A DNA stretch of 64,000 bases. It comes from a virus. Lineage: Duplodnaviria > Caudoviricetes. Position numbers and translations under genes: made by a program. The notes below the pieces were generated by a model that was not told the origin of the DNA, did no database searches, and worked only from the letters and a program-made list of their open reading frames with translations. Location: the IMG/VR virus record IMGVR_UViG_3300025575_000014, positions 1,393-65,392 of that record; one strand, given 5' to 3'. How positions within the stretch are numbered: the first letter of the stretch is position 1; each line of letters opens with the position of its first letter. Positions 23,259-52,681 of this stretch are shown piece after piece.

Positions 23259-23459
23259 TTATAAAATATCAATTTTAATTTTTAAAAGTTTAATAAGTAT
23301 TTGAATCTGTTTTAATCTAGGATTCCGTTTACCATTTTCTATTTGGCAATAACAAGATTGCGTTACTCCTAAGCGTTCTGCAACTTCTGCTTGTGACATG
23401 TCAGCTTTAACTCTAGCGATTTTTAATTCTTGTCTTTTCACTACATCATTTCCTTTCAT
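23259..23459 (-). CDS. Cro-like XRE HTH regulator
   Basis: LKIARVKADMSQAEVAERLGVTQSCYCQIENGKRNP; divergent from the repressor. Confidence 0.88.
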   Translation of the reverse strand: MKGNDVVKRQELKIARVKADMSQAEVAERLGVTQSCYCQIENGKRNPRLKQIQILIKLLKIKIDIL

Positions 23460-23485
23460 GCTAAATTATTCCTTCTTATTGTTAT

Positions 23486-23514
23486 ATTGTATTACATATC
23501 GTTATAATTTGCAA
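23486..23514 (-). promoter_or_regulatory. Early lytic (PR-like) promoter TTGCAA-N17-TACAAT
   Basis: Hexamers at 23509-23514 and 23486-23491, just upstream of cro. Confidence 0.7.
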
Positions 23515-23727
23515 CCCTTTATTTTCCTATTTTCCACATCTTGTTGAATTATTTTTTCACACTATTTCTTTTAGAAATTATTTTTGTCTTTTTGGTATTC
23601 TTTTTGCTATTTTCGTTTATAATGTTAGTATGTAGTTGAAAAAATCTTATGTTAATCTACTAATAAATGTATATATTGTTTTATATGTTGTTTTTTAAAT
23701 TTTAAAAATACATGGAGGTGTTTATAT

Positions 23728-24156
23728 ATGGAGGATAAAATTATGAATAGTGACGAAGAGTTGAGAGAAGTATTTACCCAACGACTAAAGCGATTGAGGA
23801 TGGATAAGGATTTAACCTTAGAGGAACTTGCCAAAATATTGAAAACTAAATACGATATAGGAGTAACTTACGGATCATTGGGTAATTATGAGCGGAATAC
23901 GCGTATGCCGAGTTTGTTCATTCTATCTAAAATTGCAGAGTTTTTCGATGTAACGACAGATTACCTACTGGGAAAGGTGGATATTAAAAATGCCAAAATA
24001 ATGCAGACAACCATATTCGATAAATACAATAAACAACAGAACGTTAAACTCGTTGTTAACAAAGATTCAGAGCTTGCTAATATGTCCATAAATGAAATAA
24101 GGGAACTGGTAATCAAATTACGTAGTTTAGGAATTGATTTCGACAATATCGTTTAA
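23728..24156 (+). CDS. CI-like XRE repressor
   Basis: RLKRLRMDKDLTLEELA...LGNYERNTRMPSLFILSKIAEFFDVTTDYLLG; divergent from cro. Confidence 0.85.
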   Translation: MEDKIMNSDEELREVFTQRLKRLRMDKDLTLEELAKILKTKYDIGVTYGSLGNYERNTRMPSLFILSKIAEFFDVTTDYLLGKVDIKNAKIMQTTIFDKYNKQQNVKLVVNKDSELANMSINEIRELVIKLRSLGIDFDNIV

Positions 24157-27536: not shown

Positions 27537-28289
27537 TTAACTTTTAGTTATTTTTCTTACACCTTCAGGTGTTAATAATGTCGGCATCCTTTCGCCTAAC
27601 TTTTTGTAGTCGATCTCCTCTTTTAAATTGAAACTTTCTAGCGTCAATCTAGTTCTCAAAGTGTCTATGGAAATATCGTATTCTTCAGCTATTTCTCTCA
27701 TAGTTTTAAACCCTTTTAAATTTATGGTATTGCCAAGTTGTTTTATTATCGCATTTTTTATACAGTTTTCTGCATATAATCTTGAAGAAAATTTCTCGAT
27801 ATTTTTATCATTTCCCCAAAACTTTATAACATCTAAATACCATCTTTCATCTTCAAATATAAAACTAACCACTTTTTCATCTTTAAGATAGTGTATTTCT
27901 CCGTTTTCATCTATTATTATTGCACCATCATTTCTTCTAGTTTGATTTTCTAAACAAATTTCATCCCATTTTTTTAAAATTTTATCGCTATTATTTGAAA
28001 TTAATTCTCCCCAGTTCGGTATTTCTTGGTTTTTACTCTTTAAGTTTTCTAGTTTATAGACTAATTCATCTATGTTTATAATATCATCCTCATAATCGCA
28101 TATGGTATTAAAGCCATTTTCCCACCCTCTATCATGACGTGATGCGTAATTAGTAAGTATTGCAGTGTGTATTTTTTCAATTATCAGATCAAATACGTCA
28201 CTGACGGTTCCGCTTTTATCCAATATATTGTTTTGCTGATTTGCATACTTCGATAATTCTACTAATTGTTTCAATGTCTCTTTATTCAT
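27537..28289 (-). CDS. Hypothetical protein with C-terminal HTH
   Basis: TMREIAEEYDISIDTLRTRL HTH at the C-terminus. Confidence 0.7.
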   Translation of the reverse strand: MNKETLKQLVELSKYANQQNNILDKSGTVSDVFDLIIEKIHTAILTNYASRHDRGWENGFNTICDYEDDIINIDELVYKLENLKSKNQEIPNWGELISNNSDKILKKWDEICLENQTRRNDGAIIIDENGEIHYLKDEKVVSFIFEDERWYLDVIKFWGNDKNIEKFSSRLYAENCIKNAIIKQLGNTINLKGFKTMREIAEEYDISIDTLRTRLTLESFNLKEEIDYKKLGERMPTLLTPEGVRKITKS

Positions 28290-29464: not shown

Positions 29465-30433
29465 TCATTCTCTTTCATTCTCCTTGTTACTAATATGCTC
29501 GCATTCTTTAATTGCTTGGTCTATGAGATATTGAGGAACTTTATATTTTTGACTTAACATGTTTAATGCTTGCTTGTAAATATATTTACTTTCTTTCAGG
29601 TTATCAATACATTTAATTAGTTCCTTGGCTTCTGTAATGGCTTTGTCCTTTTCTAAACTATTTTTGTTACTATAATTTTTATACACTTGTAACGTCCTCT
29701 CAATTGCTTTAATTTTGATTTCTTGGAGTTCGGAATTTCTAGCTTTTGCTAGCATTTGTTTATGGTCATTCTCATTTAACTTCTTTTCTATTGCTGCATA
29801 CCATGCTTTTACTTCCATGTGCTTGCGCTTGCTATATTTAACACCTCTATTAAGGCATTTAAAGCGTTGTTTCATGTGGTTGCTATAATTAGTCTGCCAC
29901 TCTCTCATTTTCTCTACACCATCAAAATATCGCGTATTAGATAATATGCTTTCATTTTTCTTGTTTTTAAATTTAGGCACTATGAGAGCGTGAATATGCC
30001 AAGTTTTTTCATCTTTGTGTAAAGTTGCATAGACACAATTACTCCCAAAGTTATCTTTTAGGAATTTAGCATTATCGTTTTTCCATAATTCTAAATCCGT
30101 TTTTGATAATCCTTTAAAAAAGTCAGGTGATGCGGACATTAATAACGATCTTGCTATTATTGCATTTTTTCTTAATTTAATATCTGTTATATAGTTTTTG
30201 ACATTATTGATTACGTTTTTATCGCCTATTAATATTTCGTTTTTTATATTAGTATTTGCATTTGCAACTTCGTTTTCTCGTTCCATATGATTAACAAATC
30301 CATTTAATGAATTGACGGTTTTGTATTTGTCAGCTATTCTAAATATTGCATAATAAAAATTTGAGTTTTTACTTATAGTTATGTCTTTCAATTTTTCTGT
30401 TTTAACTGGTGTTCTAAAATCTTCCCAACTCAT
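29465..30433 (-). CDS. mobV: MOBV (Mob/Pre) relaxase
   Basis: YAIFRI..K, NHMER (catalytic His region), RKNAIIARSLLMSASPDFF, ATLHKDEKTWHIHALIVP (HxDE..H.H), WQTNY...LNRG; coiled-coil C-terminus. Confidence 0.92.
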   Translation of the reverse strand: MSWEDFRTPVKTEKLKDITISKNSNFYYAIFRIADKYKTVNSLNGFVNHMERENEVANANTNIKNEILIGDKNVINNVKNYITDIKLRKNAIIARSLLMSASPDFFKGLSKTDLELWKNDNAKFLKDNFGSNCVYATLHKDEKTWHIHALIVPKFKNKKNESILSNTRYFDGVEKMREWQTNYSNHMKQRFKCLNRGVKYSKRKHMEVKAWYAAIEKKLNENDHKQMLAKARNSELQEIKIKAIERTLQVYKNYSNKNSLEKDKAITEAKELIKCIDNLKESKYIYKQALNMLSQKYKVPQYLIDQAIKECEHISNKENERE

Positions 30434-30550: not shown

Positions 30551-31915
30551 TTAATTACTAACTTTTTGTACATTGTTTGCATATTTTGGTTGATTATAGT
30601 AAATGTTTTGATTGTCTAAAAATGGCAATTTATTATGAGCAATTATTAATACCATGTCATCGTTTATACGTCTGATTTCACCTGGTGTAAATAATTTCTT
30701 AGTAGTAGTTCCTGTTGTTACTTTGTCACCGTTATGTGTCTCTGTTTTCACTTCTCTATCATCACATAAATTTGAAATATAACTCATTGTTTTATAATCA
30801 GAAATAGAAGGTAGTATAACTTTAGATTTAAGATTATTCAGAATTGTGGTTGCGTTATTCTCGCCATATATTTCATAGAGTTTTGATATATTTTGTAAGC
30901 ATACTAAAAATCCAACTTCTTCTGATCTACATACTGAAACCGTTTCTTCAAAATTTGATATTTTACCAATATTCTGAAATTCATCGAGCATGAATAATAT
31001 CGGTAATCCTTTATTGTGCATAACCTTGTCAATTAATTGAGTATAGAATACCGATAAGAACGGTGATAGGTATTTACTCTTTGACGTATCATATTTGATG
31101 TACAATGCAATAGGTCTAGTTCTTAAATCGAGCGGCTTAAAATCGCTATTAGAGGTATTGTTGATTATTTTGTGATCTGTGAATAACTGTAGACTTGTTA
31201 ATAACGTTGACATTATGCTTGACATTGTTTTTGGACTTCCAGCACTAGCCATAAATATTTTAAATTGTATAGAAATATCTTCATTTTGATTATTACCTAA
31301 TATTTCTGTTAATTCCTCTAGTGGTGTATTGATTATAAGTTTTAAAGCTTGCGATATATTTTTACTGTATAATAAAGCACTTGTGAATAAAGGAATACTC
31401 ATGTTTTCCCATTCATTTCCGCTTTTCCCTGAACCACCATTAACAATTAAATTGCTTGCTAATTCTCTAACTTCTGTAAATCCTTCGCAGTTTTCTAAAA
31501 GATTGTATTTTGCATGTTTGCCTAAAGGCTCAAACAATATCGGTTCTCTGCCTATACTTCTTTGATACTCACTCGTTAAATCCCACAACTCACCTTTAGG
31601 ATCACCTATTATAAGGCTACTTTTAGGCAAATCATCGCTTAATAGATTAGGCAGAGGAATACTTGTTGTCTTCCCTTCTCCTGTTGGTGCTATAACACAG
31701 ACACCTTCTAATGTCTTCTTGAAGGTCAATTGAAACTCTTTTGATAATACTAGTCCGTCTGTTCCAGTAAGTTTTCCTAAATCCTTTTTAGTACCTAATT
31801 TTGAGGTTGCTAGTTTTTGCTTATTTTTTCTAAATAATAAAACTATATCTATAACCGGGATGCACATTGCTAACCATAATAATTTTTGCATCATTACGAA
31901 CTCTTCCACCGACAA
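30551..31915 (-). CDS. virD4: VirD4/TraG-like type IV coupling protein
   Basis: One N-terminal TM, Walker A APTGEGKT, GDPKGE, Walker B FMLDEFQNIG, LQNISKLYEIYG, ILNN...LFTPGEI. Confidence 0.92.
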   Translation of the reverse strand: MSVEEFVMMQKLLWLAMCIPVIDIVLLFRKNKQKLATSKLGTKKDLGKLTGTDGLVLSKEFQLTFKKTLEGVCVIAPTGEGKTTSIPLPNLLSDDLPKSSLIIGDPKGELWDLTSEYQRSIGREPILFEPLGKHAKYNLLENCEGFTEVRELASNLIVNGGSGKSGNEWENMSIPLFTSALLYSKNISQALKLIINTPLEELTEILGNNQNEDISIQFKIFMASAGSPKTMSSIMSTLLTSLQLFTDHKIINNTSNSDFKPLDLRTRPIALYIKYDTSKSKYLSPFLSVFYTQLIDKVMHNKGLPILFMLDEFQNIGKISNFEETVSVCRSEEVGFLVCLQNISKLYEIYGENNATTILNNLKSKVILPSISDYKTMSYISNLCDDREVKTETHNGDKVTTGTTTKKLFTPGEIRRINDDMVLIIAHNKLPFLDNQNIYYNQPKYANNVQKVSN

Positions 31916-31976: not shown

Positions 31977-32054
31977 ATGATATTATTATTAAGTGTTGGT
32001 GAAGTTTTGAGTTGGTGCGCTGCTGCTTATTGCTTGTATCGAGGTTTGTTTTAA
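31977..32054 (+). CDS. 25-aa hydrophobic peptide
   Basis: MILLLSVGEVLSWCAAAYCLYRGLF after AAAGGAAGTG RBS; stop overlaps the stop of the convergent RHH gene. Confidence 0.45.
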   Translation: MILLLSVGEVLSWCAAAYCLYRGLF

Positions 32055-32218
32055 ATTTCTTCAAGTCCGTCTTTTGATGATTTATTAAGACTTATATATT
32101 TCAGATAAAATTCACATGCTTCTTTTATAAATGCTGATTTTTCCTCCATGGCGTATATGGCTGCATAGATTTTTTGGTCTTTAGTTGTGTTCTTAAAACT
32201 TACAACTATTTTTGACAT
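32051..32218 (-). CDS. 55-aa RHH/ParR-like DNA-binding protein
   Basis: MSKIVVSFKNTTKDQKIYAAIYAMEEKSAFIKEACEFY; AAGAAGGA RBS. Confidence 0.7.
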   Translation of the reverse strand: MSKIVVSFKNTTKDQKIYAAIYAMEEKSAFIKEACEFYLKYISLNKSSKDGLEEI

Positions 32219-32436
32219 ATTTACGTCCTTCTTTGTATTGTTGTATTAATAATATATACAAAGTTTAATCAATTGGTTACAATGAATTACTCCATAAATA
32301 AGAAAAAGTCTAGCAAATGCTAAACTTTTAAATAAACTTTAATTGTTGGTTTTTATCAGAATAGCCTAAAAATTTTAATATTATTCTTTCTCGCTTTTTA
32401 CCGTAATATTCACTTTTAGTACTACTTTGTAGCTAA

Positions 32437-32610
32437 TTAAAAATCTAAATCAAAATCACTTTCCTGTTTTTTTTCATTTTTCATAACTTTAACCGGCATT
32501 TCTTTTTTTATTAACCCTTTAATATAAATGCTAGGACTTAACTGAGATAAGAGAAAATTATACATGTCTTTCTCTGTTTCTTTAAACGAAATGCTAACTT
32601 TTAAAGCCAA
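32437..32610 (-). CDS. ParR-like partition adaptor (57 aa)
   Basis: MALKVSISFKETEKDMYNFLLSQLSPSIYIKGLIKKEM...DFDLDF: RHH N-terminus and acidic tail; TTG start overlaps the parM stop. Confidence 0.75.
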   Translation of the reverse strand: MALKVSISFKETEKDMYNFLLSQLSPSIYIKGLIKKEMPVKVMKNEKKQESDFDLDF

Positions 32611-33458
32611 ATTGATTCACCTCTTTTTTTAAAACCTCTGCTATTGGCAAATATTGAATCTTCTATTAATTGAACATTAGGTATTCTATTTTTAAACGCT
32701 TTATGAAGCATTATAGCTCCACCACCAACTAACATAATGTCTAAGGTCTTGATACTATACCCAACTTGTAACTCATTCACAAGCCCTTCTACATAGCTTT
32801 TAAATATATCTAATGCAAAACCAATATTTCTATCTTCTCCATATATTTTTAATCCATTTTTAATTAATCTTGGTGCATCATCAGCTTTTAGATCAAGTGC
32901 ATATTTGCTATTAACCATTTTTATAAAATCTGAATATAAATTTAAGGTCCCAATAGGCAAACTATATGGTTTTTTAACTTTTTTATTTTCTAACAATGCG
33001 ATATCAGTTGTTCTACCTCCGATATCTACAATAACACCGTTAAATTCTTTGTTTATTAAAGCAGCAATGCCCTCTGGATATACTTCTATATCTTCAATTA
33101 TTAGCTTTCTTTCAATCCCATTTAAACCAATATTCTGCATCCTGTCTTTTAATAATAATTCTTTAAAAGCATTTTTATCTTCTTTGTATTGACTAAGAGG
33201 TAAACCCACACAAATCTGATTATTTATTTCATCCGTACTCATTGCTACCGCCGCAAGAAACATTTCTTTAATATATTCTTTTTTAATCTTACGGTATTCA
33301 GTATTATATGAACCTTCTTCCATATAAAAAGTACCATCCATGGTTGTTAACGCAATGGAACTGTCAAGTATATTGTCCGTCTTTGCAACTTTAGACGTAA
33401 AATTAACACCCTTTGAGGTTTTTGTTGCATAATTACCTAAATCCACACCTATTATCAT
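32601..33458 (-). CDS. parM: ParM/StbA-family actin-like partition ATPase
   Basis: Phosphate-1 GVDLGNYATK, VYPEG, phosphate-2 IVDIGGRTTD, adenosine LVGGGA, connect FANSRGF. Confidence 0.92.
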   Translation of the reverse strand: MIIGVDLGNYATKTSKGVNFTSKVAKTDNILDSSIALTTMDGTFYMEEGSYNTEYRKIKKEYIKEMFLAAVAMSTDEINNQICVGLPLSQYKEDKNAFKELLLKDRMQNIGLNGIERKLIIEDIEVYPEGIAALINKEFNGVIVDIGGRTTDIALLENKKVKKPYSLPIGTLNLYSDFIKMVNSKYALDLKADDAPRLIKNGLKIYGEDRNIGFALDIFKSYVEGLVNELQVGYSIKTLDIMLVGGGAIMLHKAFKNRIPNVQLIEDSIFANSRGFKKRGESIWL

Positions 33459-33539
33459 TAAATATATCTCCTTTTAACTACTTCTTACTATATAGTATTC
33501 CATATTGAGCAAAATGTAACCAATGTTGTTTTGCAAAAT

Positions 33540-33586
33540 AAAAAACCCATATACTTACATGAAAGGCAAGCATACAGGCTTTAAAC
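33540..33586 (-). terminator. Intrinsic terminator isolating the par operon from upstream phage genes
   Basis: 14-bp G:U-rich stem GCCTGTATGCTTGC/GTAAGTATATGGGT followed by a T run. Confidence 0.7.
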
Positions 33587-35625: not shown

Positions 35626-37467
35626 CTAATACGGAATAGGTTCGTCTGTGACATAGTTAGGATTAAGCTCCATGTTTTTATTCTTTTCCCACCCATAATT
35701 TACTATCTCTTTGGTTCTATCATTGTAAAATCTTAATGTCTTTTTACTAAAATTCATTCTTATAACTTTTCTTATTCCACTTTCACGATCTTTTAAACTT
35801 GTAATGAAAGCATCGCACTCCGCATTATCTCCAAAATTTCTTTCTATCGCAATTATATTATCAGCTTTATTGGCGATATTGTTTGAACCACTTATATCCA
35901 ATTTATCTAAATTACCTTCTTGTGCATCATCTGTTTTAATTTCACCTTTTCCTTTGTTGGGATGCGCAAGTAGAACCACATGAACATTATTGCTAATAGC
36001 GAAGTTTTTACAACTTTGAATAAAATTTGCTTGTGCTGAATACAATTCATCTGCTACTTCTTCGAGCTTACTCATAAGATTATCAATCACAAACAACTTA
36101 ACACCATAGCGATCAGCAGCAATACCCATAATTTTAAAGAAATCATCCATTTTCTTGCTAACTTTGTCTGAACTTCTATCGAATAAATAAAATTTGTCTT
36201 GGTGCCATTTTTTTATTTCTGTTATGATATTCGGTTTTAATTCCGCTTTAGACTTATATTTACACTGAATAAATCTAAAATAATCGTCTTTGTTTCCAGC
36301 TATTTGTTTGTATAACCAATCCTGTATTTTATGCTCCGACATTTCACCACTGTATAAAAACACTTTTGTATTTTTCATAAGATTATGTGCTATCACCTGG
36401 CTTATAAATGTGGTTTTACCTTCTCCGTTTCTACCGAATATTATTGTGAGTTCTTGTTCTTTCCAATCCTCCACATGTTCGTCATATTCAATAAACCCTG
36501 TTTCGATACCGTTAGATTGTATTTCGATATTTGATTTATATTCTAATTGCGATACCTCAATTAAGCCTTCTGGAACTTCATTTATAGCTTTATTTATTAA
36601 TTCTAGAATGTATTTTTCACCCTCATAATAAAGGTCTTCGTTAGCATCTTTGTGTTTTTCAGATGTTATAATTTTTACATTTTTAAGTTTCATTTTTATT
36701 TTATCAGCCATTTCAAAACCCGGCTTATCATTATCAGCATAAACTATAAATTCTTTTATACATTGCAACCATTCCCAACAATTATCAATCCAAGTAAGAT
36801 TATTTGAGCCACTAGGTACACTCACAACATTTTTATAACCACTCTGATAAATTGCCATCGCATCCGGCTGGCCTTCCGTAATTACAAGAGGTTTAGACAT
36901 ATCAATATGTTCCATTCCCCATAAAATCGGCATTGTGTCAAGTTCACAACCACCCTTTAGTCCACCTTTTATAGCTTCCCTATAACTAACGAATACTAAT
37001 TTACCACCTTTGAAGTACTGAAATACATAAACGTCTTTGTTTGCGAATCTACCTTGCTTAACATTTAATTCATTCAACGTCTGTTTAGTAATTTTTCTTT
37101 TATCCATGTAAGAAATTAATGAATCGGTTAATTCTATAGTTTTAATATTCGGGAATTTATATATTTTCTTAGAAGTTTTGTTTTGTAAATGAACTCCGCT
37201 TTTACCTACCAATTCCCCGACTTTTTCTACAGCTTCACAAAATGACATATTTTCATAATCTTGATAATATCTATAAATATCAATTTGTTCTCCGCATGAA
37301 TTACACCTATACATCATTCCTTTAGCAAACCAACTCATAGAAGGTTTTTTATCTGTGTGAAAAGGACAACTCACCATCTTTTTAATTTCTCTTAACCCTA
37401 ATCCACTTAAAATTATTTCTTTTGCTCGTTGCCCTAAATCTTCTTTTAATTCCACTGCATCTAGCAT
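35626..37467 (-). CDS. Primase-helicase (Zn finger, TOPRIM, SF4 helicase; T7 gp4/Twinkle-like)
   Basis: CPFHTDKKPS...CNSCG; ITEGQPDA, YADNDKPG, KDANE; GRNGEGKT, FVIDNLM, LAHPNK, DISGS. Confidence 0.92.
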   Translation of the reverse strand: MLDAVELKEDLGQRAKEIILSGLGLREIKKMVSCPFHTDKKPSMSWFAKGMMYRCNSCGEQIDIYRYYQDYENMSFCEAVEKVGELVGKSGVHLQNKTSKKIYKFPNIKTIELTDSLISYMDKRKITKQTLNELNVKQGRFANKDVYVFQYFKGGKLVFVSYREAIKGGLKGGCELDTMPILWGMEHIDMSKPLVITEGQPDAMAIYQSGYKNVVSVPSGSNNLTWIDNCWEWLQCIKEFIVYADNDKPGFEMADKIKMKLKNVKIITSEKHKDANEDLYYEGEKYILELINKAINEVPEGLIEVSQLEYKSNIEIQSNGIETGFIEYDEHVEDWKEQELTIIFGRNGEGKTTFISQVIAHNLMKNTKVFLYSGEMSEHKIQDWLYKQIAGNKDDYFRFIQCKYKSKAELKPNIITEIKKWHQDKFYLFDRSSDKVSKKMDDFFKIMGIAADRYGVKLFVIDNLMSKLEEVADELYSAQANFIQSCKNFAISNNVHVVLLAHPNKGKGEIKTDDAQEGNLDKLDISGSNNIANKADNIIAIERNFGDNAECDAFITSLKDRESGIRKVIRMNFSKKTLRFYNDRTKEIVNYGWEKNKNMELNPNYVTDEPIPY

Positions 37468-38345
37468 TAAAAATCATCCCTCCTTGTAACTGGCTTATAT
37501 TTGGGTTTTTCTTTAATTTGTGTTTTGAATGGCTGATTTAGATAATTTTCAAAATTGTTAACACCAAATAACGTTTGCGGTCTTAAATAAATCCTCATAT
37601 CCTTTTCATTAAGACTAGGCTCGTGATTCCACTCGATGGTTTTTATGTCTATTACTTTTATGAAATCTCCTAATGTGTATTTAGCGTTATCGTTAAACCT
37701 AGCATTTATAAGTTTTCTAGTCGCACTACTATTACTACTAAATTTTTTATCTGCTTTTAAATTTAGGTAATCGATTATTTCTTTAAAAGGTATTTCGGTA
37801 GATGTATCTTTTAAGGGTTCGTTATTAGTAATAGGACTTATAGCATTACCTTCTTTACCTTCTTTACCTTCTTTACCTTCTTTACCTTCTTTACCTTCTT
37901 TATTAGTGGTTAGTTGCTGGTTAGTTGCTGGTTGGTTGCTGGTTAGTTGCTGGTTAGTCTGCTGGTTGCATATTCCTTGAAACGATTGAAATTGCTCGGT
38001 TGGTTGCTGGTTAGTATGCTGGTTGAATTTTTCATAATTTACGATAGAATATATTGTAAACTTCGGAGTAGCTTTTATGTTTACAATCATATTATCTTCT
38101 AAAAGTCTTTTCAAACACGTTCTAATCCTTTGTTCTCCTATGTTTAACTCTTTACTCCATTGAGTTCTCCCAAATATAAATTCACCATATCCCAAGGTGT
38201 ATTTTATATTTTGATAATAGCTTGTTTTGGTTTCTTTTTTATACCTAGCTTTACCTAACATGGTAATCCAAATTTTTAAGCAATTCGCATCGGTATAAAT
38301 CCAATGTTCAAAAATAGACCTGCACAATGGGAATGAATTAAACAT
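37467..38345 (-). CDS. Phage replisome organiser / replication initiator
   Basis: Start MFNSFPLCRSIFEHWIY after AAGGAGG; wHTH; Q/N repeats; C-terminal IPFKEIIDYLN...LRPQTLFG.NNFENYLNQ conserved phage C-terminal domain. Confidence 0.85.
   Translation of the reverse strand: MFNSFPLCRSIFEHWIYTDANCLKIWITMLGKARYKKETKTSYYQNIKYTLGYGEFIFGRTQWSKELNIGEQRIRTCLKRLLEDNMIVNIKATPKFTIYSIVNYEKFNQHTNQQPTEQFQSFQGICNQQTNQQLTSNQPATNQQLTTNKEGKEGKEGKEGKEGKEGNAISPITNNEPLKDTSTEIPFKEIIDYLNLKADKKFSSNSSATRKLINARFNDNAKYTLGDFIKVIDIKTIEWNHEPSLNEKDMRIYLRPQTLFGVNNFENYLNQPFKTQIKEKPKYKPVTRRDDF
37848..37975. repeat. Iteron-like tandem repeats inside the initiator gene (likely lytic ori)
   Basis: 9-bp TTCTTTACC tandem (KEG repeats) and ~12-bp GTTGCTGGTTAG-like repeats (NQQLT/NQP). 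Confidence 0.75.
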
Positions 38346-38437
38346 TGTATTTCCTCCTTTGATAAATATAGAATAATATCCCTGCGGAGGTAATATAAAA
38401 TCATGTACTTTTAAAAAAATACGTGTTATAATATAAG

Positions 38438-38512
38438 TAATATATTTCAAAAGCAACTAAGTTTATAAACCTTCACTTTGTCAACCGGCCATGGTTGGCA
38501 ATTTTCTTTTTT
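38438..38512 (+). ncRNA. Putative antisense RNA to the initiator leader
   Basis: TG-t-TATAAT at 38424-38432, terminator TTGTCAACC-ggccat-GGTTGGCAA-TTTTCTTTTTT at 38478-38512; opposing promoter TTTACA-N18-TATAAT at 38533-38562. Confidence 0.6.
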
Positions 38513-41058: not shown

Positions 41059-41556
41059 TTACAATGTTAGTTTATTTTCTCCAACTTGTGCTGATACAGT
41101 TTGTGGAGTTTCATTTGCTTTTAGTGCATCTTGAGTATTGGAAGATACTTCTTTTGTAACAACAACATCAGCTTCATCTTTGACAGGATCATAAACTGGT
41201 GCTAATAAAGTTTCTACTTGATTATTAACTTCCCCGACTACACTTTCCCTAAAGTGGTCTAGCTGTGATTGTGTAAGGAATGGGAATTTAGCTAATAGTA
41301 TTTTATCAAACATGGTGGCCTTTAAATTCCCTGCATTGGGGATTAACTTAAACAATTGTTCTACTTGATAAAATATACCTTTGGCTACTGTAGCACGAGA
41401 ATTATAAGTATCTGCCCCTAATTTGACCGTCTCTACTTGTTTTTTCTTACCAAGGTATAAACTTACCTGTGCTATTAAATATGTAGTAGCAAGCCCTACA
41501 ATGGTGAATATAGCTTCTGTTAATATATTTGAAATTCCGTTTATCAATGTATTCAT
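41059..41556 (-). CDS. Holin (LL-H-like)
   Basis: N-terminal TM, QVEQL and ESVVGEVN motifs; adjacent to the endolysin. Confidence 0.65.
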   Translation of the reverse strand: MNTLINGISNILTEAIFTIVGLATTYLIAQVSLYLGKKKQVETVKLGADTYNSRATVAKGIFYQVEQLFKLIPNAGNLKATMFDKILLAKFPFLTQSQLDHFRESVVGEVNNQVETLLAPVYDPVKDEADVVVTKEVSSNTQDALKANETPQTVSAQVGENKLTL

Positions 41557-41573: not shown

Positions 41574-42269
41574 TTATATTAGTATTTTGAAAGACTTGAA
41601 ACCTTTAGCCTCCAATTCTTTTATCCTAGCATCCGCATTTGCTTCATCTGCGAAACTACCTGTTATAACCCGGTATGTTTTATTACCTGTTGTAACTGTT
41701 GGCTTAGAAACAGTTGCAGGCTTAATTGTTATGTTTGGAATATCCTTACCTGTAATGCCTTTTACGATTGCGTTTGCTAATTTTTCAGCATTATATTTAT
41801 TGCAATCACTTTTGGTATCGCAAAAGAATGGCTCCACCAGAATTGCGGTTGCATTAGTATGTTTTAATACGTATAATCCTGGTCTTGAGACACTCCCTCT
41901 GTTATGAAAGCCAAGAGTAGCCATTTGTGTATTTATTCTATCTGCATATACCTTTGCTTTTGCACTTATATACTCAACTTCGCAACCACTAGCCTTATCT
42001 GTTTGGAAAGCATTTACATGAAGACTAACAAATAAGTCTACTTTGGAATTGTTAGCCTTGTTAACTCTATAGGCTAGGCTTTGACCTAACGTTAATTCAC
42101 TTTGCGCAGGTGTTACGTTGATTACTGTATGGCCCAGCTTCTGTAATCCCGCTATTACTAAAGCGCCATATTGTCTATTAACTACTGTTTCTATTAAATA
42201 TCCACCCGCCCCAGTATCTCCGCTGCCACTTCCGTTTAGAGAGTGGCCTAAATCTATCGCAATCCTCAT
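41574..42269 (-). CDS. Endolysin: Amidase_3 plus SPOR domain
   Basis: IAIDLGH, ETVVN, SLHVN, ILVEPFFCD; C-terminal YRVITGSFADEANADARIKELEAKGF. Confidence 0.93.
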   Translation of the reverse strand: MRIAIDLGHSLNGSGSGDTGAGGYLIETVVNRQYGALVIAGLQKLGHTVINVTPAQSELTLGQSLAYRVNKANNSKVDLFVSLHVNAFQTDKASGCEVEYISAKAKVYADRINTQMATLGFHNRGSVSRPGLYVLKHTNATAILVEPFFCDTKSDCNKYNAEKLANAIVKGITGKDIPNITIKPATVSKPTVTTGNKTYRVITGSFADEANADARIKELEAKGFKSFKILI

Positions 42270-42871: not shown

Positions 42872-45800
42872 TTACCTTTTAATTAATTGACGGTCATCAG
42901 AACTTAATGAATTATAAAAATCCTTTCTATCTGATTTAGTCATGCCATCGTATTTTTGTTGCAATTCAGAATAACCTGATTCTTTCAATTTTTTAACCGC
43001 TGCTTTTTTTCTGCTACTTCTTTCTTTACTGGGTGTATCGTATTTATCAAAAATTGCAGTTGTGCTAGCATGTGGATTATCTTTTAACGCATTTCCAAGT
43101 TCTTCATTTAATGCTTTTGAATTAGCAAGTTTCGTTTTGCTATTTTCTGAAATTAGTTCCGTTAATTTTATTTGCTTTTTTTCATTACTTGGTGCAGTAT
43201 ATTCTCTTAACCAATTACCCTCATAAGATTTTTTGGAACTATCATATGATGAATTTGTTGCCGCTTTTGCATAAGTACCAGCACCGCTTCCAACCAGTGC
43301 GTTGCCTATGACTTTTTGTACTCCTGATGATGGAGTTTCATTGTTATATTTAAAGGTGCTAGGTACACCAAAAGGAATTGGACCTGCTTCACTTAAAATA
43401 TACTTAAGAATATTAATGTCATTTTCTGACCCTGTTTTATCGGGATTGCTTATTTTTCTACCTAAATAGTCAGTATTAGAAGCCCAACCAACTCCTGTTC
43501 TTAAAAATGGTGACAATTTACCTTGTAATGATTTAGATACACCGCCTAAAACCCCATTTGTTACAACATTGGAAACTAATTTAGTGAAATCGCCTATACC
43601 ACTTCTAAACAATGAAATGTATACGTCTGGTTGAACTTGTAATTGCAATTCGTGTCCTTTGGGGTTTTTATCTGTAAGATGTCCTGTAAATAAATAGTTC
43701 AATCCTTCTGTTAACAAACCACCAGCCACTAAACCTGTTATATATTGACTTCTTGCCGCATTGCCGCCAGGACCTTTTTCAAATGCTTTACCAACCATAC
43801 GAACGGAAGATTCCGTCCAATCTGGTGCTAAAAGTAGCATTCGTTCAGTTCCTAACGCGGAAGGGTTTTTACCTAATGACTGCCAATTGAGACCACCATA
43901 CGCTAGGTTAACTTCTTTGGCGATACTAATTTTAGCTTTTGATAAGTCTGCATTAACCGTTTCTGGATGCTTAGACGCAAAATCTAAAACTTTATTTTGA
44001 TAATCAGTAACTTTAAGCCATCTTTGAATTTTTCCAAATAATAAGTTGTTATTAGCTTCAATAAGATGCTTGCCTTGTTTTAGAATCGGTAAATTAGTTA
44101 TTTTATCCATTTTTGAACCTGTAGTTGTTAATCTACTTAATGTATCAATATTGGATGATAATTTAGAAGTTGTGCCAGTATGTCGTGCAAAATCTTTTTC
44201 GGATACTTGAAACTCTGGACTATCTAAAAGGTGTAAATCGTTCCAATGTCTTATAAAATCTATTCCGCCTTTATTATTATATAAAGCTTGTGCGGCTAAT
44301 GTGATATGGTGAAAAGTTGAAAATGCCAAATCCATTGTTTTAACAACACCTTGATATTTCTGTATACCTCTCATGCTATCAATTTTTTTAGTTAAATCCG
44401 AATCCGTAATTGCTCTCAATCCATTAGCGAGATTTTCAGGTAATACAAAAGGTCTTACTTCATATCCGGTAGCGGTTGGAACATGTTTATCTAATCCGAT
44501 AACGTTTTTAAATCCTTCTGGGACGTTCTTGCTATAAGAACCTAATCCACTAGTTTCTAATGAGGTAGCAAGTTCTCTAGTGGTATTTGCGTAGGACATT
44601 TCTTGATTATGAATTGCTAATAGGTCATTTGCTTTTAATGTTGCTGGTTGCTTACCATTTAAAAGTCCTTCGCTGATATTGTCATAAACTCTTTGCTTAC
44701 CATGTGAAGTGTTGGGATTAATACCATTGTTTCTTATGTCGGTTTTAACACCTCTAGGAGGTTTAACCCACATTCTGTTTGCGTAATTTTCCCTACCTAC
44801 ATTTATTGCACCTGTTTTTAAAGCATAATCTTTACTTTCTTTATAATATTTTTCAGCCATTTCCACCGCTTTCATAGCGTTCGGAGATAGATTTAAAGCC
44901 TGTTTATAACCGTCTCTATAGGTTATCTTAGTGTTAGGTATATAGCTATCCATTATTGGGTCGTTATGGTCTGTCATATCTCTTAAATGATTCATATTAC
45001 CGCCAGCATCGATAAATAATTGTATACCTTCTTGCTCGTTGGGTGCTAGTTTTTTCATAGTATCCGCTAAGTGATTTCCTGCTGCTATCTGTCCATTTCT
45101 TTTACCTATAAAGGCATCGCGTATATTTTGTGACGTTGCTTTATCGTTTTTGCCTGAAATAATCGGCAAAGGTTTATTATCGACATATTCACTGCTTACT
45201 TCATGCTCTAGTGAAGGGTCCCAATTTGGATCACTTGGTTTAATATATAACGGTTTTTTAGGTGGTATTTTATCGCCACTATCACCAGGTTTTATTTTAG
45301 TAAATTTCATAGGTTTTTCACTCATATTAGCGGTACTGGTCATGTCACTTTTACTCTTAGTTGATTTAGGTAAAGTATCTTCCGCTTTAACAATTCCACT
45401 ATCTTTTTTAATCTTTTGCGTAGGAACTTTATCCTTTTCAACCTTTGTAACTGGTTTTCCTTCTTTACCTATTATTCCTGTGGCACCTTGACCATCAGCA
45501 AAAACACTGATATTTACAGGATTTCCATTTGGCGATTTACCTTTTATGTGGATAATACCATCTTCATTTAGAAAAAGTTTATATTTAATGCCTTTCTCGT
45601 CCATTTTTTTAATAAATTTTTCTGTTTCTAATTTCTGCCTAGGAACATCTGTTACTACTTTTTTTGATTTAACAACATTGTTATCGGAAATTTTGTTTTG
45701 TTCAGACGATTTTTTCTCAACTATTTTTGTGGAATTTGTTCCGCTTGTTTCTCCTTTAATCATAGGTAACTTATTGATAGTGTCATTTTTTTTATCTACC

Positions 45801-48800
45801 GTTATTTGTTCTGGATTAAATACCGCATAAGTGTTTGAACCATCTTTTTCAAGTATTTTAAAACCATCATAACCTAACTCTTTAAGTTCGCTTGTGAAGC
45901 TATTAACACCTTTTAATTGTCCTAGTGTAGTCGGTTTTGTAATTTTAGGAAGTTCGCCATCATAATTGAAAATATCTTCAAACTGTTGAGGTGTAATTTT
46001 ATCATTGTTATAGTCCCACATTTTATCATGTTTTAATGTAGCTTTTATAACCCTCCCTTCACCTACGTTTGATTGATATGTTGTTGCATAATTATTAGCG
46101 CTTTCTAAACTATCAGTGAAATAAAAAGCATCGCCATATAAAGTACTTTTCTTATTAAACGAATTATCAAATTGTTTAAACTTTTTATTAGTACCATGAT
46201 ATACAAAGTTATCTTTAGTAGTATTTTTAAGCTCTGCATCTTTTAAATTAGGTTGATTATCATCAATATCTATTTTTGCGTCTTTCCCGCTTGTTGTTCC
46301 TTCGATAACTCTTGTTCTTTCACTCTTTTGTTCATTTCCCTTAGTTGCAATGCTTTCTTGATTGCTTCCCTGTTTGATATTACCTTCACTTGTATCACCT
46401 CCGAATAAATCAGTTTGACCATCATTAACTACTGAATTATTTATCTTTTCTGCAATATTTTTATTTTTACCTAAGTAATCTGTAATATCACTTGTGGCTT
46501 TTTCTACCGCTGAATTTAATTTTAATCCCTCCGAACCTATTTTACTAGCATACGTGTTCAATATATCATTAATTGGGTCGCCTTTTTTACCCTTGCCTTG
46601 GTCTATTAATTTTAAAACATTATCTAAAATTTCTTTTTTCTTAGCGTTACCAACAGTATTTAAAGTATTTCCAGCATCATTTAAAATATCACTTTTGTTT
46701 ATAACTTTATTAAATACATTTTTGTTGCTTGTAATAGTGTGCTTTAATTGAGATATGAGTTTCATTTTATCAGCGAAATTGCTACCCATAACATCACTAG
46801 TTCCTAGACCATCTAAGGACATTTGTTGGTTCTCTGCTACGTCATTGACCATTCCATTTTGACTACCTTTAATCATATAAATAGCTTCATGCAATTCATT
46901 TTTATTAGGATTATTTTTTTGTATATAATCCATTACTGCATTTTGGTTTGCATCATTTTCTTTTGAATCATTAGGAAATTCGCTGCCTATCATTGAAGCT
47001 TTGTCATAATCGAGATTTTTATTAACTACATGGTGATATAGTCTGTCATTTAATTGAGCAATATTATAACCTTGAACTATAGATTTATCTTTAGTAGATA
47101 ATCCTTGTTTCTTTAAATCATCAACAGTGTAATTGCCATCTCTAAATATTTGTGCAGCATCTTTTGGAGTTCCTTGACCCTCTGCTATATTTTGCATTGC
47201 TCCGATTTCTCTAGCTTTCTTATCGGTTATACCGTCACTTTCCTTCAGCAATAGCGCATTAACACTATCGGTATTTGTTCTTTGAGCCAATTCAAGCCTG
47301 TGATGTCCGTTAACTACCCAGTTCTTACCTTGATTGTCTTGCCATACAGTTATTGCACCAGCTTTACTTTTAACAAACTTATCGGTGCCTTTGAGTTTAT
47401 CGGTAGTACCTGTTTCAGAATCGGTATTTTCTTTAAATTGGAATCTCTTAGGGTCAACACCAATCGAATTAACTTTTATTGATTTCATTTCTTCACTATT
47501 AGAAACACCGTTGTTGTCAGTGGTATCTACCTTTTTCGCGGTGTCGGAAATATGGTTTAAACCTTCGTTATTTGCGTTCTGCTGAACGTTACTACCTATA
47601 GGTGCATTAACATTGTCAACTGTTTGCGAGGTGCCGCTAGTTTGGTTTACGTTAGTACCATTATAGCCAGTTAAAGCGGTGTCATTAGGATGCTTCATTT
47701 TGTAAACATCATCAATAGAGTTTAATCCCTCATTACTTCCATTTTGTTCAATTACGTCTGAACCCTTTTGAGCTTTTTCTAATACTGTTTGAGCATTGTT
47801 TCTATTTATAGTAATGACTTTTTTTCTAACTTCTTCCATGATAGGATTTTCTTGTGGCATATCTTCTAGTTTATTTGCGATTTCAGCAAGTCCTTGCGCT
47901 TGGTCAATTTCATCATGTTTCAGTTGAGTGTATTCGCTTTTAGGTTGAGTGTCGTTTGCAATTGGAGCTGATTCCATGGCCTGTTTATATTTTTGGATAA
48001 CGTTCTTAGTTTCACCATCTGTTTTAGAATTTTTTAATTCATCAGAAAATTTTATTTCCCATTTAGGTATTGCGTTCCCTTTGTTGTCTTGATAATTAGA
48101 GTTTTCTATAAATACATTAGCTGATTCTGGAGAATTTTTTAATGTTGAATCGCCTTTGTTGGTTGTTTCGGTAGGTTTTACCCAATATCCGCTTCCTGGT
48201 ATCGGTTCAGTATAACCCTTTGATTTTATATAACTTGAAGTTTTACCCATTACATCGCCTAAAGCTTTGCCTCCTGCACCCCATAATGCACCGCTTACGA
48301 ATCCTTCACCAGCACTTTTAGCAATTTGCTTTGTGTTTCCTCCTTGTAGTGAAGTTTCGGTTGCGTTTAATCCTGCAAATTCTGTACCAGTACTAGCTGC
48401 GGAAATTCCATATTGAATAGCCTTATTTGCTATTTTATTTGATACATAATCACCGACTACTTTGCCTGTTAATTTAGAAATTCCATTTTCAGCAAGAGTA
48501 GACATTTGACCAAATTTAGCAATGCCTGCTTTTTCTAAACTACCGAAACCAAACATACTTCCTACCGCATCTGCAATAAAATCGGTTGCGGCGTTGCCTG
48601 TACTTTTATTATCGCTTTGATATGCCCCAGCTTGAAATGCACTTCTTGCAGTTTCAGTAATTCTGTGAGTGATTGCATTTCTGTCTATTGATTCAGCATC
48701 ATAACCTAAATTTTGAAAAAGTTTCATTCCCCATCTTGCGATAAGATTAGGTTGCTCTTTTTCTATTGCTGCATTCATAGCGGTACGGTCATTTGCATTA

Positions 48801-50194
48801 TATGGTTTGTTGTCGTAATGGATTGCATATGCTGGGTCGTTTAACATTTTTTTATAAGCTGCATTGCCACTATTATCATTAGGTTCAATTGTATTAGGTG
48901 CAACCTTTTGAGTATCGGTGGTTGCATATGTTATAGGAACTTCATTTTTAGGTTGTAAATACTGATTCAAATAATCTAATTTGATTGGGTCGGATTTAGG
49001 AGTTGTCGAATCAAGTTCTTGACCACTAAGCATTGGTAATTGAGCCTTTATTGTTGCATCTTTTTCATTTGAAGCTTTGCCTTTTGCTACTTGCGCTGCT
49101 ATTTCTGCTTTAGAGCCTGTAATATTAGTTGTGTATGGCATATTTATTTGAGCCTTACCAGTAAGAGGATTAATGCCTGTTGTTACATCTGCACCCATAG
49201 CCTTAACATCTTCATGTCCTGCTTTTAACTGACCATTTAAAGTTGATTTTGCATTATTAACTAACCCTAGCAAATAATTAGCAATATCAATATCAGCTTG
49301 GCTTGATTCAGAATCGTTAATAGTTTCACTATATTGTTTTCCTAAATCATCAAGGCTAGTTAATCTATCTTCAAATGTTTTTTTAGCGGAATCGCCTTTG
49401 CTATTAAGAATATCATTAACACTAGCAATCCCTTCCTTACCATCCGCACTATTCATTATTTTAGCTAGTGCAATTTTGGCTTTATCTGCATAACGTTGGT
49501 TATCGGTTAATACCTTTTGAGCCGCTATTTTTGAAGTTGCATCATAGCGTGCATTATCCGTTAACACCGCTTGTGCATCTTGTGCAACCTTAGTCTTATA
49601 TCTTGCATTAGAAGTAGCTTGTTCAGTGTTAAAATGAGCATCAGAAACATTGTCTCTACTTGCGGTATGATCGTAATTAGATTTCCAATGAGAATCAGTT
49701 GTTGCATCCCTGCCAGCTTGATATTCTTGTGCTACTTCTTTATCAGCATAGTTTCTAGCTAAATTATCAATTACTGTTCGTTTATCATTAGCCATTGTAT
49801 TTGCATTGTTATCGTAAGCTGATTGTTGAAGTTTTAAATTGCTATCTATGTTGTCCATTGCCTTAGTACGTCTTTGGTTTATAGCACCAACATATTTGTT
49901 ATTAACTTGATTCATTTCTGCAATCCCTGCACCAGCATTAGAATTTGCCCCTAAACCTCTAGTTGAAATTGTATTGTTATAGTTATTTTGTGCGGTTTTA
50001 TTGTTGCTATTTTGACTAGCTACTTCGGTGTCAAAATTTTGATTAGTGCTAGATTTTTGGGTATTCAAAGCGGAGGTATTACCTTTAAGTGTACTTTTTA
50101 ATATAGCAATTTTAGCAGCGTAAGTTGGAGCAAGTTCTTTACTAGCTATTGCGGTTTGTGAATTTATTTTCTGTGCATAATTTGTTGAAGCCAT
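42872..50194 (-). CDS. Giant internal virion/ejection protein of polyvalent type (2440 aa)
   Basis: Last structural gene before lysis; ParB-like domain (~47130-47480: VDPKRFQFK...WVVNGHHRLELA), ART-like domain (~45800-46210: VYHGT...FYFTD...GYDG..YAVFNPEQI), Gly/Ala-rich membrane-interacting segments. Confidence 0.75.
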   Translation of the reverse strand: MASTNYAQKINSQTAIASKELAPTYAAKIAILKSTLKGNTSALNTQKSSTNQNFDTEVASQNSNNKTAQNNYNNTISTRGLGANSNAGAGIAEMNQVNNKYVGAINQRRTKAMDNIDSNLKLQQSAYDNNANTMANDKRTVIDNLARNYADKEVAQEYQAGRDATTDSHWKSNYDHTASRDNVSDAHFNTEQATSNARYKTKVAQDAQAVLTDNARYDATSKIAAQKVLTDNQRYADKAKIALAKIMNSADGKEGIASVNDILNSKGDSAKKTFEDRLTSLDDLGKQYSETINDSESSQADIDIANYLLGLVNNAKSTLNGQLKAGHEDVKAMGADVTTGINPLTGKAQINMPYTTNITGSKAEIAAQVAKGKASNEKDATIKAQLPMLSGQELDSTTPKSDPIKLDYLNQYLQPKNEVPITYATTDTQKVAPNTIEPNDNSGNAAYKKMLNDPAYAIHYDNKPYNANDRTAMNAAIEKEQPNLIARWGMKLFQNLGYDAESIDRNAITHRITETARSAFQAGAYQSDNKSTGNAATDFIADAVGSMFGFGSLEKAGIAKFGQMSTLAENGISKLTGKVVGDYVSNKIANKAIQYGISAASTGTEFAGLNATETSLQGGNTKQIAKSAGEGFVSGALWGAGGKALGDVMGKTSSYIKSKGYTEPIPGSGYWVKPTETTNKGDSTLKNSPESANVFIENSNYQDNKGNAIPKWEIKFSDELKNSKTDGETKNVIQKYKQAMESAPIANDTQPKSEYTQLKHDEIDQAQGLAEIANKLEDMPQENPIMEEVRKKVITINRNNAQTVLEKAQKGSDVIEQNGSNEGLNSIDDVYKMKHPNDTALTGYNGTNVNQTSGTSQTVDNVNAPIGSNVQQNANNEGLNHISDTAKKVDTTDNNGVSNSEEMKSIKVNSIGVDPKRFQFKENTDSETGTTDKLKGTDKFVKSKAGAITVWQDNQGKNWVVNGHHRLELAQRTNTDSVNALLLKESDGITDKKAREIGAMQNIAEGQGTPKDAAQIFRDGNYTVDDLKKQGLSTKDKSIVQGYNIAQLNDRLYHHVVNKNLDYDKASMIGSEFPNDSKENDANQNAVMDYIQKNNPNKNELHEAIYMIKGSQNGMVNDVAENQQMSLDGLGTSDVMGSNFADKMKLISQLKHTITSNKNVFNKVINKSDILNDAGNTLNTVGNAKKKEILDNVLKLIDQGKGKKGDPINDILNTYASKIGSEGLKLNSAVEKATSDITDYLGKNKNIAEKINNSVVNDGQTDLFGGDTSEGNIKQGSNQESIATKGNEQKSERTRVIEGTTSGKDAKIDIDDNQPNLKDAELKNTTKDNFVYHGTNKKFKQFDNSFNKKSTLYGDAFYFTDSLESANNYATTYQSNVGEGRVIKATLKHDKMWDYNNDKITPQQFEDIFNYDGELPKITKPTTLGQLKGVNSFTSELKELGYDGFKILEKDGSNTYAVFNPEQITVDKKNDTINKLPMIKGETSGTNSTKIVEKKSSEQNKISDNNVVKSKKVVTDVPRQKLETEKFIKKMDEKGIKYKLFLNEDGIIHIKGKSPNGNPVNISVFADGQGATGIIGKEGKPVTKVEKDKVPTQKIKKDSGIVKAEDTLPKSTKSKSDMTSTANMSEKPMKFTKIKPGDSGDKIPPKKPLYIKPSDPNWDPSLEHEVSSEYVDNKPLPIISGKNDKATSQNIRDAFIGKRNGQIAAGNHLADTMKKLAPNEQEGIQLFIDAGGNMNHLRDMTDHNDPIMDSYIPNTKITYRDGYKQALNLSPNAMKAVEMAEKYYKESKDYALKTGAINVGRENYANRMWVKPPRGVKTDIRNNGINPNTSHGKQRVYDNISEGLLNGKQPATLKANDLLAIHNQEMSYANTTRELATSLETSGLGSYSKNVPEGFKNVIGLDKHVPTATGYEVRPFVLPENLANGLRAITDSDLTKKIDSMRGIQKYQGVVKTMDLAFSTFHHITLAAQALYNNKGGIDFIRHWNDLHLLDSPEFQVSEKDFARHTGTTSKLSSNIDTLSRLTTTGSKMDKITNLPILKQGKHLIEANNNLLFGKIQRWLKVTDYQNKVLDFASKHPETVNADLSKAKISIAKEVNLAYGGLNWQSLGKNPSALGTERMLLLAPDWTESSVRMVGKAFEKGPGGNAARSQYITGLVAGGLLTEGLNYLFTGHLTDKNPKGHELQLQVQPDVYISLFRSGIGDFTKLVSNVVTNGVLGGVSKSLQGKLSPFLRTGVGWASNTDYLGRKISNPDKTGSENDINILKYILSEAGPIPFGVPSTFKYNNETPSSGVQKVIGNALVGSGAGTYAKAATNSSYDSSKKSYEGNWLREYTAPSNEKKQIKLTELISENSKTKLANSKALNEELGNALKDNPHASTTAIFDKYDTPSKERSSRKKAAVKKLKESGYSELQQKYDGMTKSDRKDFYNSLSSDDRQLIKR

Positions 50195-52667: not shown

Positions 52668-52681
52668 TAAATCACCTTCCT

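Follow-up and report, generated by a model that had tools for sequence, protein, structure and literature searches.

We examined a pair of genes, parM and a candidate parR, in a 64-kb stretch of phage DNA (the window, that is, the whole stretch analysed: bases 1393-65392 of the 65,392-bp IMG/VR record IMGVR_UViG_3300025575_000014), with a GC content of ~31% and almost every gene on the minus strand. The pair resembles the type II partition systems of plasmids. In R1 ParMRC (parA/stb), pSK41 ParMR, AlfAB and Alp7AR, the gene for an actin-fold ATPase is followed by that for a co-transcribed adaptor, and the autoregulated promoter serves as the centromere. The R1-type adaptor combines an N-terminal DNA-binding part with a C-terminal filament tail, and the centromere, parC, comprises ten 11-bp iterons in R1 and four 20-bp repeats in pSK41. 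An original prediction placed such a system at 32051-33586 and regarded its carrier as a plasmid prophage; the coordinates of the features are collected in Table 1.

The parMR transcription unit

The product of parM (285 amino acids, aa) matches the Pfam family ALP_N at 3.9e-15, its 56.8 bits exceeding the cut-off of 26.3, and also matches phrog_691, annotated as 'partition protein', at 3.9e-48. Its closest solved structure is Cb-cParM of Clostridium botulinum (PDB 7x54, also 285 aa), which was aligned over residues 4-284 with an E-value of 4.5e-18; the next-best solved relatives are pCBH ParM and Ta0583, and a full-length match was also obtained to the ParM structure 6izr. Against the NCBIfam ParM equivalog the protein scores 40 bits, the cut-off being 417. 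In an alignment of 47 homologues that includes this ParM, residues D6, G8, E129, D145, G147, G148, T150, T151 and G245-247 are invariant, and the ParM motifs are intact, namely the DxG of phosphate 1, the catalytic Glu, the DIGGRTTD of phosphate 2 (D145) and the GGG of the adenosine motif (G245). The pairwise ratio of nonsynonymous to synonymous substitution rates (dN/dS) is 0.08-0.13 for parM and 0.1-0.35 for parR, which places both under purifying selection, and the pair is a genuine, selected cassette with intact genes.

The parR candidate begins with TTG, and its Shine-Dalgarno (SD) sequence, AGAGGTG, sits within the 3′ end of parM. A pair with the same 10-nt overlap was found in eight loci, namely the window and all seven other related loci examined, which lie on different phage-like contigs; in these seven the parR homologue starts with ATG. 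A profile search gathered 51 members of the parR family. None of them is named or falls into a Pfam family, and at least 14 agree with a ParM homologue in the length of the longest contig, which suggests that the two lie on the same contigs. An alignment of the family displays M-A-x-K-V-S-I-S-F-K as a conserved N-terminal segment; two helices and a Lys-rich linker that varies come next, and (D/E)FxLDF is conserved at the C-terminus. The KVSISFK segment of the candidate is strand-like, and an AlphaFold2 (AF2) monomer model (predicted local distance difference test, pLDDT, 68) places helices at residues 11-22 and 26-37, followed by a disordered tail. A strand-like segment, two helices and a tail would fit the layout expected of a ribbon-helix-helix (RHH) ParR with a filament-binding tail. 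A Pfam search across 44 family members gave no meaningful match, and a search of the ESM Atlas with the candidate returned unnamed clusters only.

The second small gene, which encodes a 55-aa protein and has its own promoter, is located just upstream of a coupling-protein gene; it lies behind the terminator that ends the parMR transcript, and therefore outside that transcript. Its product has a weak phrog_4223 match in common with the parR candidate, to which it is 25% identical, and is without the LDF tail. It is a distant ParR-like paralogue, and may act as a regulator or relaxosome accessory. With regard to the locus, then, the original prediction of a ParM-like ATPase is borne out by ALP_N, phrog_691 and the full-length alignment with 7x54, and its overlapping ParR-like gene is confirmed as a coupled small partner by the 10-nt overlap and the internal SD sequence; the span that it assigned to the system does hold parMR, but the left edge, 32051-32218, is the separate gene behind the terminator.

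Because terminators are present on both sides and the pair has its own promoter, parMR is an insulated unit. The upstream terminator has a stability of -19.5 kcal/mol (z -5.85; equally stable shuffles, 0 of 200), and a relative, the metagenome contig L007, has a clean terminator at the equivalent place upstream of parM. The parM promoter and leader blocks are conserved among relatives. ATTTTGC occurs 18 times in the whole window, and two of these copies are at the parM promoter; promoter-proximal palindromes that differ in sequence were found in most relatives examined, one of them with 11-bp arms. A parC near the parMR promoter, made up of the palindrome TTTTGCAAAA and the two ATTTTGC copies, is thus plausible, though not established, and the 3′ untranslated region (UTR) of parR is a second possible site. 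The conserved leader element AGTAAGAAGT was considered as an iteron and rejected, as it is present in a single copy in the window.

The closed genome and its other modules

The record is labelled as linear in IMG/VR, and CheckV estimates its completeness at 87%. A Logan contig from a different sample, SRR3989258_26484, runs from record position 7056 to 1, continues through 29 extra bases and then follows the record from 65392 to 53665, with 100% identity, and a 103-aa gene crosses the junction of the two ends. Because this contig joins both ends with 29 bases, the ends of the record are an assembly break that hides nothing. The genome forms a circle of ~65,421 bp, closed or circularly permuted, and the record is 29 bp short of it. 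The CheckV estimate was set aside in view of this direct closure by an independent contig. A second contig of run SRR3989258 covers record 7029-39267 with identical gene order. In these two contigs, which cover record 51010->65392->1->7056 and 7029-39267, no host DNA flanks the phage. The 1,392 bases of the record outside the window hold the remainder of the 710-aa portal gene and a small Lys-rich open reading frame (ORF), and no terminal repeats were found in them. A megablast search of 29-39 kb against phage and plasmid collections gave zero matches.

A six-frame search of the whole 65,392-bp record with hidden Markov models found nothing at E<=1 for PF00589, PF00239, PF07508, PF00665 or PF16684. 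These families represent the tyrosine recombinases, the serine recombinases (two families), the rve transposases and protelomerase, and the control genomes responded. The divergent cI-like and cro-like genes, both of the helix-turn-helix (HTH) type, are separated by a 268-bp spacer with short tandem repeats at 23520-23694, and are predicted to form a temperate-type regulatory switch. The phage also encodes a sigma factor. These results agree in the main with the original prediction. The cI/cro switch that it placed at 23.2-24.2 kb corresponds to the divergent HTH pair at 23259-24156, and the six-frame searches support its statement that the 64 kb contain no tyrosine or serine recombinase. It had also allowed for an integrase in the unread remainder, which is absent from the whole record, whose ends are 29 bases apart; that unread stretch does lie between the portal and head genes, as had been supposed, and contains the rest of the portal gene and small ORFs. 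The circularity check that it proposed is answered by contig SRR3989258_26484, which joins the ends through the 29 bases.

The gene for the replication initiator carries three sets of repeats, among them the iterons TTACCTTCT and TGGTTAGTTGC. These iterons are reminiscent of a lambda-O-style origin within the gene, and the Logan contig break at record 39267, which is window position 37875, coincides with them. Two additional Rep-like genes were considered and rejected: that at 27537-28289 has no Pfam or NCBIfam match and one weak match among PHROGs (E 0.004), and that at 7333-8148 has no Pfam or NCBIfam family. The initiator and the primase-helicase are the sole supported replicon.

Directly downstream of parMR, a VirD4/TraG-type coupling protein and a MobV relaxase are encoded, without genes for a mating pore. 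The order parMR, coupling protein, Mob_Pre, cI/cro is also found in contig L007, whose ParM is 80% identical, and this conservation suggests that the partition-mobilisation block belongs to the lineage as such and did not arise by recent accident. In another element (L004/L005; JGI 3300009695, 3300010331), a ParMR pair with 67% identity lies ~4 kb from a gene for an FtsK/SpoIIIE-type translocase. That ParMR is repeatedly accompanied by a DNA pump, VirD4 here and FtsK/SpoIIIE there, may merit a systematic survey.

The virion genes point to a short-tailed phage. The portal is of the P22 type (its score is that of the whole protein as read from L010, and the six-frame match is also over the cut-off). 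The closest named relatives of the large terminase subunit are those of Stx2/933W-type phages, Roseobacter CRP-7 and Vibrio douglas 12A4, which we take to be short-tailed. The 562-aa protein encoded after the capsid gene has no Pfam or PHROG match and 224 homologues in a representative library; its AF2 model, built with 59 homologues, has a pLDDT of 90.9 and a predicted template modelling score of 0.87, and the best Foldseek matches are the phage tailspikes 6e1r, 6c72, HK620 and Sf6 (E down to 1.6e-12). We are confident, on the basis of this model, in predicting a beta-helix tailspike or depolymerase. A 502-aa protein matches phrog_511, 'internal virion protein', at 3.9e-12, and a tblastn search of this protein and the 562-aa protein against phages gave zero matches. 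A 199-aa protein scores 24.5 bits against SU10_adaptor, a podovirus adaptor, slightly below the cut-off of 27. The long-tail families PF10145, PF04984 and PF06199 were absent in six frames, and no tape-measure, tube or sheath family or PHROG was found. Several virion-region proteins of 170-250 aa are without a family. Three tail-region proteins could be assigned to no family, so that a short-tailed, podovirus-type virion is likely but stays short of proof. Thus, of the podovirus with ejection proteins that had been proposed, the P22_portal match, the tailspike fold and the phrog_511 gene speak in favour, whereas the tail type is unproven.

Several further observations concern this region. Between the end of the small terminase gene and the large terminase gene, there are 2.9 copies of a 14-bp unit, TGCAACCTTTTTAG, at 4215-4254, and a 12-bp relative occurs twice inside the small terminase gene at 4751-4774; the TGCAACCTTTTTAG repeats are a candidate pac or small-terminase-binding site. 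A polyvalent virion protein of 2,440 aa (42872-50194) contains an ART-PolyVal domain (9e-14) and a segment that resembles the C-terminal part of phrog_21. Two adjacent large proteins of 558 and 599 aa (50991-54481) are beta-propeller-like, with WD40/PD40-type matches and a weak Atlas lead to a phage receptor-binding-protein propeller, and they may be receptor-binding proteins besides the tailspike. An HNH endonuclease gene (57969-58649; phrog_374, 4e-67) sits midway through the virion module, with the tailspike gene on one side and the adaptor-like genes on the other, and is probably a homing-type insertion.

Table 1. Features of the phage genome in window coordinates, with strand and supporting evidence
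Feature	Position	Strand	Evidence or remark
Portal, P22 type (window part of 710-aa gene)	3-992	-	PF16510 (P22_portal) 6.2e-15, 55 bits
Terminase large subunit	2139-4007	-	phrog_24361 and phrog_309 (terminase pair)
Terminase small subunit	4254-4964	-	phrog_24361 and phrog_309 (terminase pair)
cro-like HTH gene of divergent switch, 66 aa	23259-23459	-	precomputed HTH matches
cI-like gene of divergent switch, 142 aa	23728-24156	+	HTH_3 1.3e-11
MobV relaxase	29465-30433	-	Mob_Pre 2.3e-28, MobV 2e-28
VirD4/TraG-type coupling protein	30551-31915	-	T4SS-DNA_transf 1.1e-58, conju_CD1115 4.9e-52
Second small gene (55 aa), ParR-like or RHH-like, own promoter	32051-32218	-	phrog_18533 2.1e-15
Terminator ending the parMR transcript, ~110 nt after parR	32304-32329	-	-11.6 kcal/mol, z -3.76
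parR 3′ UTR, second possible parC site	32330-32436	-	between parR and terminator
parR candidate, 57 aa, TTG start	32437-32610	-	10-nt overlap with parM stop
parM, actin-like segregation ATPase, 285 aa	32601-33458	-	ALP_N, phrog_691, PDB 7x54
parM promoter and leader, best candidate ParR operator/parC	33459-33541	-	sequence inspection
SD sequence AAGGAG	33468-33473	-	parM ribosome site
Leader AGTAAGAAGT	33480-33489	-	conserved in relatives
-10 TACTAT	33492-33497	-	parM promoter
-35 GTTACA	33515-33520	-	17-nt spacer to -10
Direct ATTTTGC copies (two), spaced 24 bp	33533-33539, 33509-33515	-	parM promoter region
10-bp perfect palindrome TTTTGCAAAA	33529-33538	-	parM promoter region
Intrinsic terminator, closes upstream HTH/60-aa unit, insulates parMR	33542-33582	-	hairpin and U-run
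Primase-helicase (Zn-ribbon, Toprim, DnaB_C)	35626-37467	-	Pfam matches, phrog_239 4e-80
Replication initiator, predicted origin inside gene	37467-38456	-	Phg_2220_C 1.6e-21, phrog_428 8e-37
Iterons in initiator gene, 9 bp x 6.3, perfect, TTACCTTCT	37846-37902
Iterons in initiator gene, 11 bp x 5.5, TGGTTAGTTGC	37907-37967
Further repeat in initiator gene	37992-38024
Holin-like gene	41059-41556	-	phrog_14669, weak phrog_608
Endolysin	41574-42269	-	phrog_435 4e-68
Tailspike, right-handed beta-helix, 562 aa, after capsid gene	58741-60429	-	AF2 and Foldseek
Major capsid protein	60857-61816	-	Phage_capsid_4 1.1e-08, phrog_371 1.6e-13

Relatives of the pair and known partition systems

A scan of IMG/VR with the single protein found no relative of this ParM, and an alignment-based scan found 57. 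Its closest relatives are encoded in Caloramator genomes, and the host is probably like Caloramator or Clostridium. ParM relatives are also carried by 188 closed plasmids, mostly 38-55-kb replicons of Clostridium and Clostridioides, and in the episomal phage phiSM101 the relative adjoins a plasmid replication gene. The parMR pair alone recurs in phages whose virion modules differ widely.

No repeat array comparable to those of R1 and pSK41 adjoins parMR in the window, and its ParM is shorter (285 versus ~320 aa). The Cb-cParCMR system of C. botulinum Bf (PDB 7x54-7x59) is like the window in its 285-aa ParM, in its small downstream partner gene and in its phage-type neighbours. Its parC consists of short palindromes and not of a long iteron array, and at the parM promoter of the window only a short palindrome and two 7-mers were found; three palindromes adjoin the Cb-cParCMR operon, and a parC conserved among strains was not found (PMC12270681). 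The proteins themselves are distant: Cb-cParM is only ~25-30% identical to the window ParM, and Cb-cParR has no detectable similarity to the 57-aa protein. In the C. botulinum system, Cb-cParM was measured to polymerise, and Cb-cParR to bind the palindromic parC and to act as a depolymerisation factor (PMC12270681). This 'chromosome-encoded ParM' of Clostridium was described with an unknown role (PMC12270681). Given its phage-type neighbours (amidase, Cro/CI and replication initiator), the published Cb-cParMR may be prophage-borne.

The Bacillus phages IEBH and vB_BtS_B83 and the Clostridium perfringens phage phiSM101 (NC_008265) are temperate tailed phages maintained as circular plasmids. In each, a small adaptor gene comes directly after a ParM-like gene, and each has its own initiator and repressor, as does the window phage. 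In IEBH and vB_BtS_B83 the adaptor is a small RHH protein, and IEBH, like the window phage, is without any recombinase (PMC8026635). The ParM of phiSM101 is ~29% identical to that of the window, and its downstream ORF is unrelated to the parR candidate (hhalign with the parR family gave no meaningful match). All three are siphoviruses or myoviruses, whereas in the window phage a P22-type portal and a tailspike were found and no long-tail family; every circular plasmid prophage in the table of PMC8026635 has a long tail. The window phage has a relaxase and a coupling protein, which have been reported for none of the three; conjugation genes are only sporadic in phage-plasmids (bioRxiv 10.1101/2025.11.07.687105). 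The combination of ParM and a small adaptor in plasmid prophages has already been published for IEBH, B83 and phiSM101, and plasmid prophages are well known in Firmicutes. The classical phage-plasmids P1 (ParABS) and N15 (SopAB) are partitioned by type I systems with a Walker ATPase; dimers of P1 are resolved by Cre, and the linear N15 encodes a protelomerase. They share the life style proposed for the window phage, that is, transfer in virions combined with a partitioned plasmid state, whereas a function of the Cre or protelomerase type is absent from the window phage.

Persistence of the phage in its host

By what means might this phage be inherited? Its genome carries a virion, packaging and lysis set, an initiator with iterons, partition genes and a temperate-type switch. 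Because an integration function is absent from a closed genome with such a switch, weight is given to plasmid life, and since there is no integration module, persistence would most likely be as a low-copy circular plasmid (phage-plasmid). We consider it reasonably probable, though far from assured, that the locus provides type II (ParM/ParR) partition to a temperate and probably short-tailed phage, which most likely lives as a low-copy circular plasmid in a Clostridia-type host. In Clostridia, phage-plasmids make up as much as half of the phages or plasmids (PMC7969092). By analogy with R1, pSK41 and Cb-cParMR, the following course of events can be proposed. The circularly permuted genome would close after infection, and the cI-like repressor would silence the late genes. 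The initiator, acting on the iterons inside its own gene, would replicate the circle together with the primase-helicase, while the insulated parMR unit would be transcribed from its own promoter. ParR dimers would occupy short repeats, either palindromic or direct, in or close to the parM promoter, which would also result in autoregulation, and the C-terminal LDF tail of ParR would catch the growing ends of ATP-ParM filaments. The elongating filament would then drive sister copies into opposite halves of the cell.

Several observations weigh against this interpretation. A tyrosine recombinase is encoded in 23 of the 39 IMG/VR records that have a related ParM (33-73% identity), or in 12 of the 19 that are >=90% complete, and 17 of the 39 are classed as proviruses. 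Clostridium contigs of Mb size (loci L019, L023 and L029) carry ParM relatives as well. Because the ParM family is common both in integrase-bearing or provirus records and on such contigs, ParMR alone is not diagnostic of plasmid life, and the pair is compatible with integrating phages. The Xer-like recombinases of plasmid prophages may serve to resolve dimers and are no guide in either direction (PMC8026635). A recombinase for multimer resolution is carried by many circular plasmid prophages, and none was found in this record. Tandem- and direct-repeat searches within 31.9-34.0 kb found no iteron array or parC repeats. None of the sequence, profile and fold searches (Pfam, NCBIfam, PDB profiles, Foldseek and VIA-align) connected the 57-aa protein with a known RHH or ParR family, and the RHH fold predicted for it is therefore unproven. 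Finally, a closed assembly is equally expected from virion DNA and from replicating DNA.

Since the ParM family is found in integrase-bearing phages and on chromosomes, it should have some use besides plasmid upkeep, and we considered that a real ParMR might act outside classical lysogeny, in a carrier or pseudolysogenic state, in lytic replication or in sporulation; in the last case, ParMR would push a genome copy to the pole, where it would be trapped in the forespore. The frequency of the same family in integrase-bearing and provirus records and on chromosomes, and the role of Cb-cParR as a depolymerisation factor (PMC12270681), are in keeping with such a use, as is the sigma factor of the phage. 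Expression in a quiescent state, however, would fit the repressor/cro pair and a parMR unit that is insulated and has its own promoter, and without an integrase a stable lysogen must be extrachromosomal in any case, so we regard this alternative as unlikely, though not negligible. We think it somewhat less likely still that the phage integrates or is maintained by an undetected function, either an unrecognised recombinase or, as for CTXphi, host XerCD at a dif-like site, with ParMR as an accessory. Dozens of ORFs are without a family, ParM relatives at 73%, 67% and 57% identity lie in records with a tyrosine recombinase (in one record 1.1 kb upstream of parM), and host Xer-mediated integration has been documented in other phages (PMC8026635). 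Nevertheless, the five recombinase, transposase and telomerase families were empty at E<=1 in all six frames under conditions in which the controls responded, and a host junction is seen neither in the record nor in the two SRR3989258 contigs examined, which cover record 51010->65392->1->7056 and 7029-39267.

The position of the plasmid-like block at 24.4-33.6 kb, between the lysogeny switch and the replication genes, might also be read as the trace of an earlier plasmid fusion, with the partition, mobilisation and RHH genes as an inert remnant of the plasmid. This is very improbable in our judgement: every gene is intact, parM and parR are under purifying selection, the order from parMR through the coupling protein and Mob to cI/cro is shared by a phage with only 80% identity in ParM, and the parMR pair by itself recurs in phages with quite different virion modules. 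Maintenance as a ParMR-segregated plasmid is thus the reading that we prefer. It is conceivable, though rather doubtful, that three routes of inheritance are combined in this one 65-kb genome, namely infection by a short-tailed virion, segregation as a plasmid by ParMR, and mobilisation through MobV and the VirD4-type protein.

For annotation, these results imply that 'ParM = plasmid prophage' is unfit as a rule, because within this ParM family the presence of parMR does not predict the absence of an integrase. The parR candidate belongs to a new, unannotated ParR-like family of 51 members with a conserved LDF tail. The MobV/VirD4 pair and the short-tail-type virion are unusual traits of this phage, and its virion module sets it apart from the long-tailed circular plasmid prophages of PMC8026635. 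Phage-plasmids, which abound in Clostridia, are now seen as a major link between phages and plasmids; the present genome contributes a closed and well-delimited example of actin-type partition genes.

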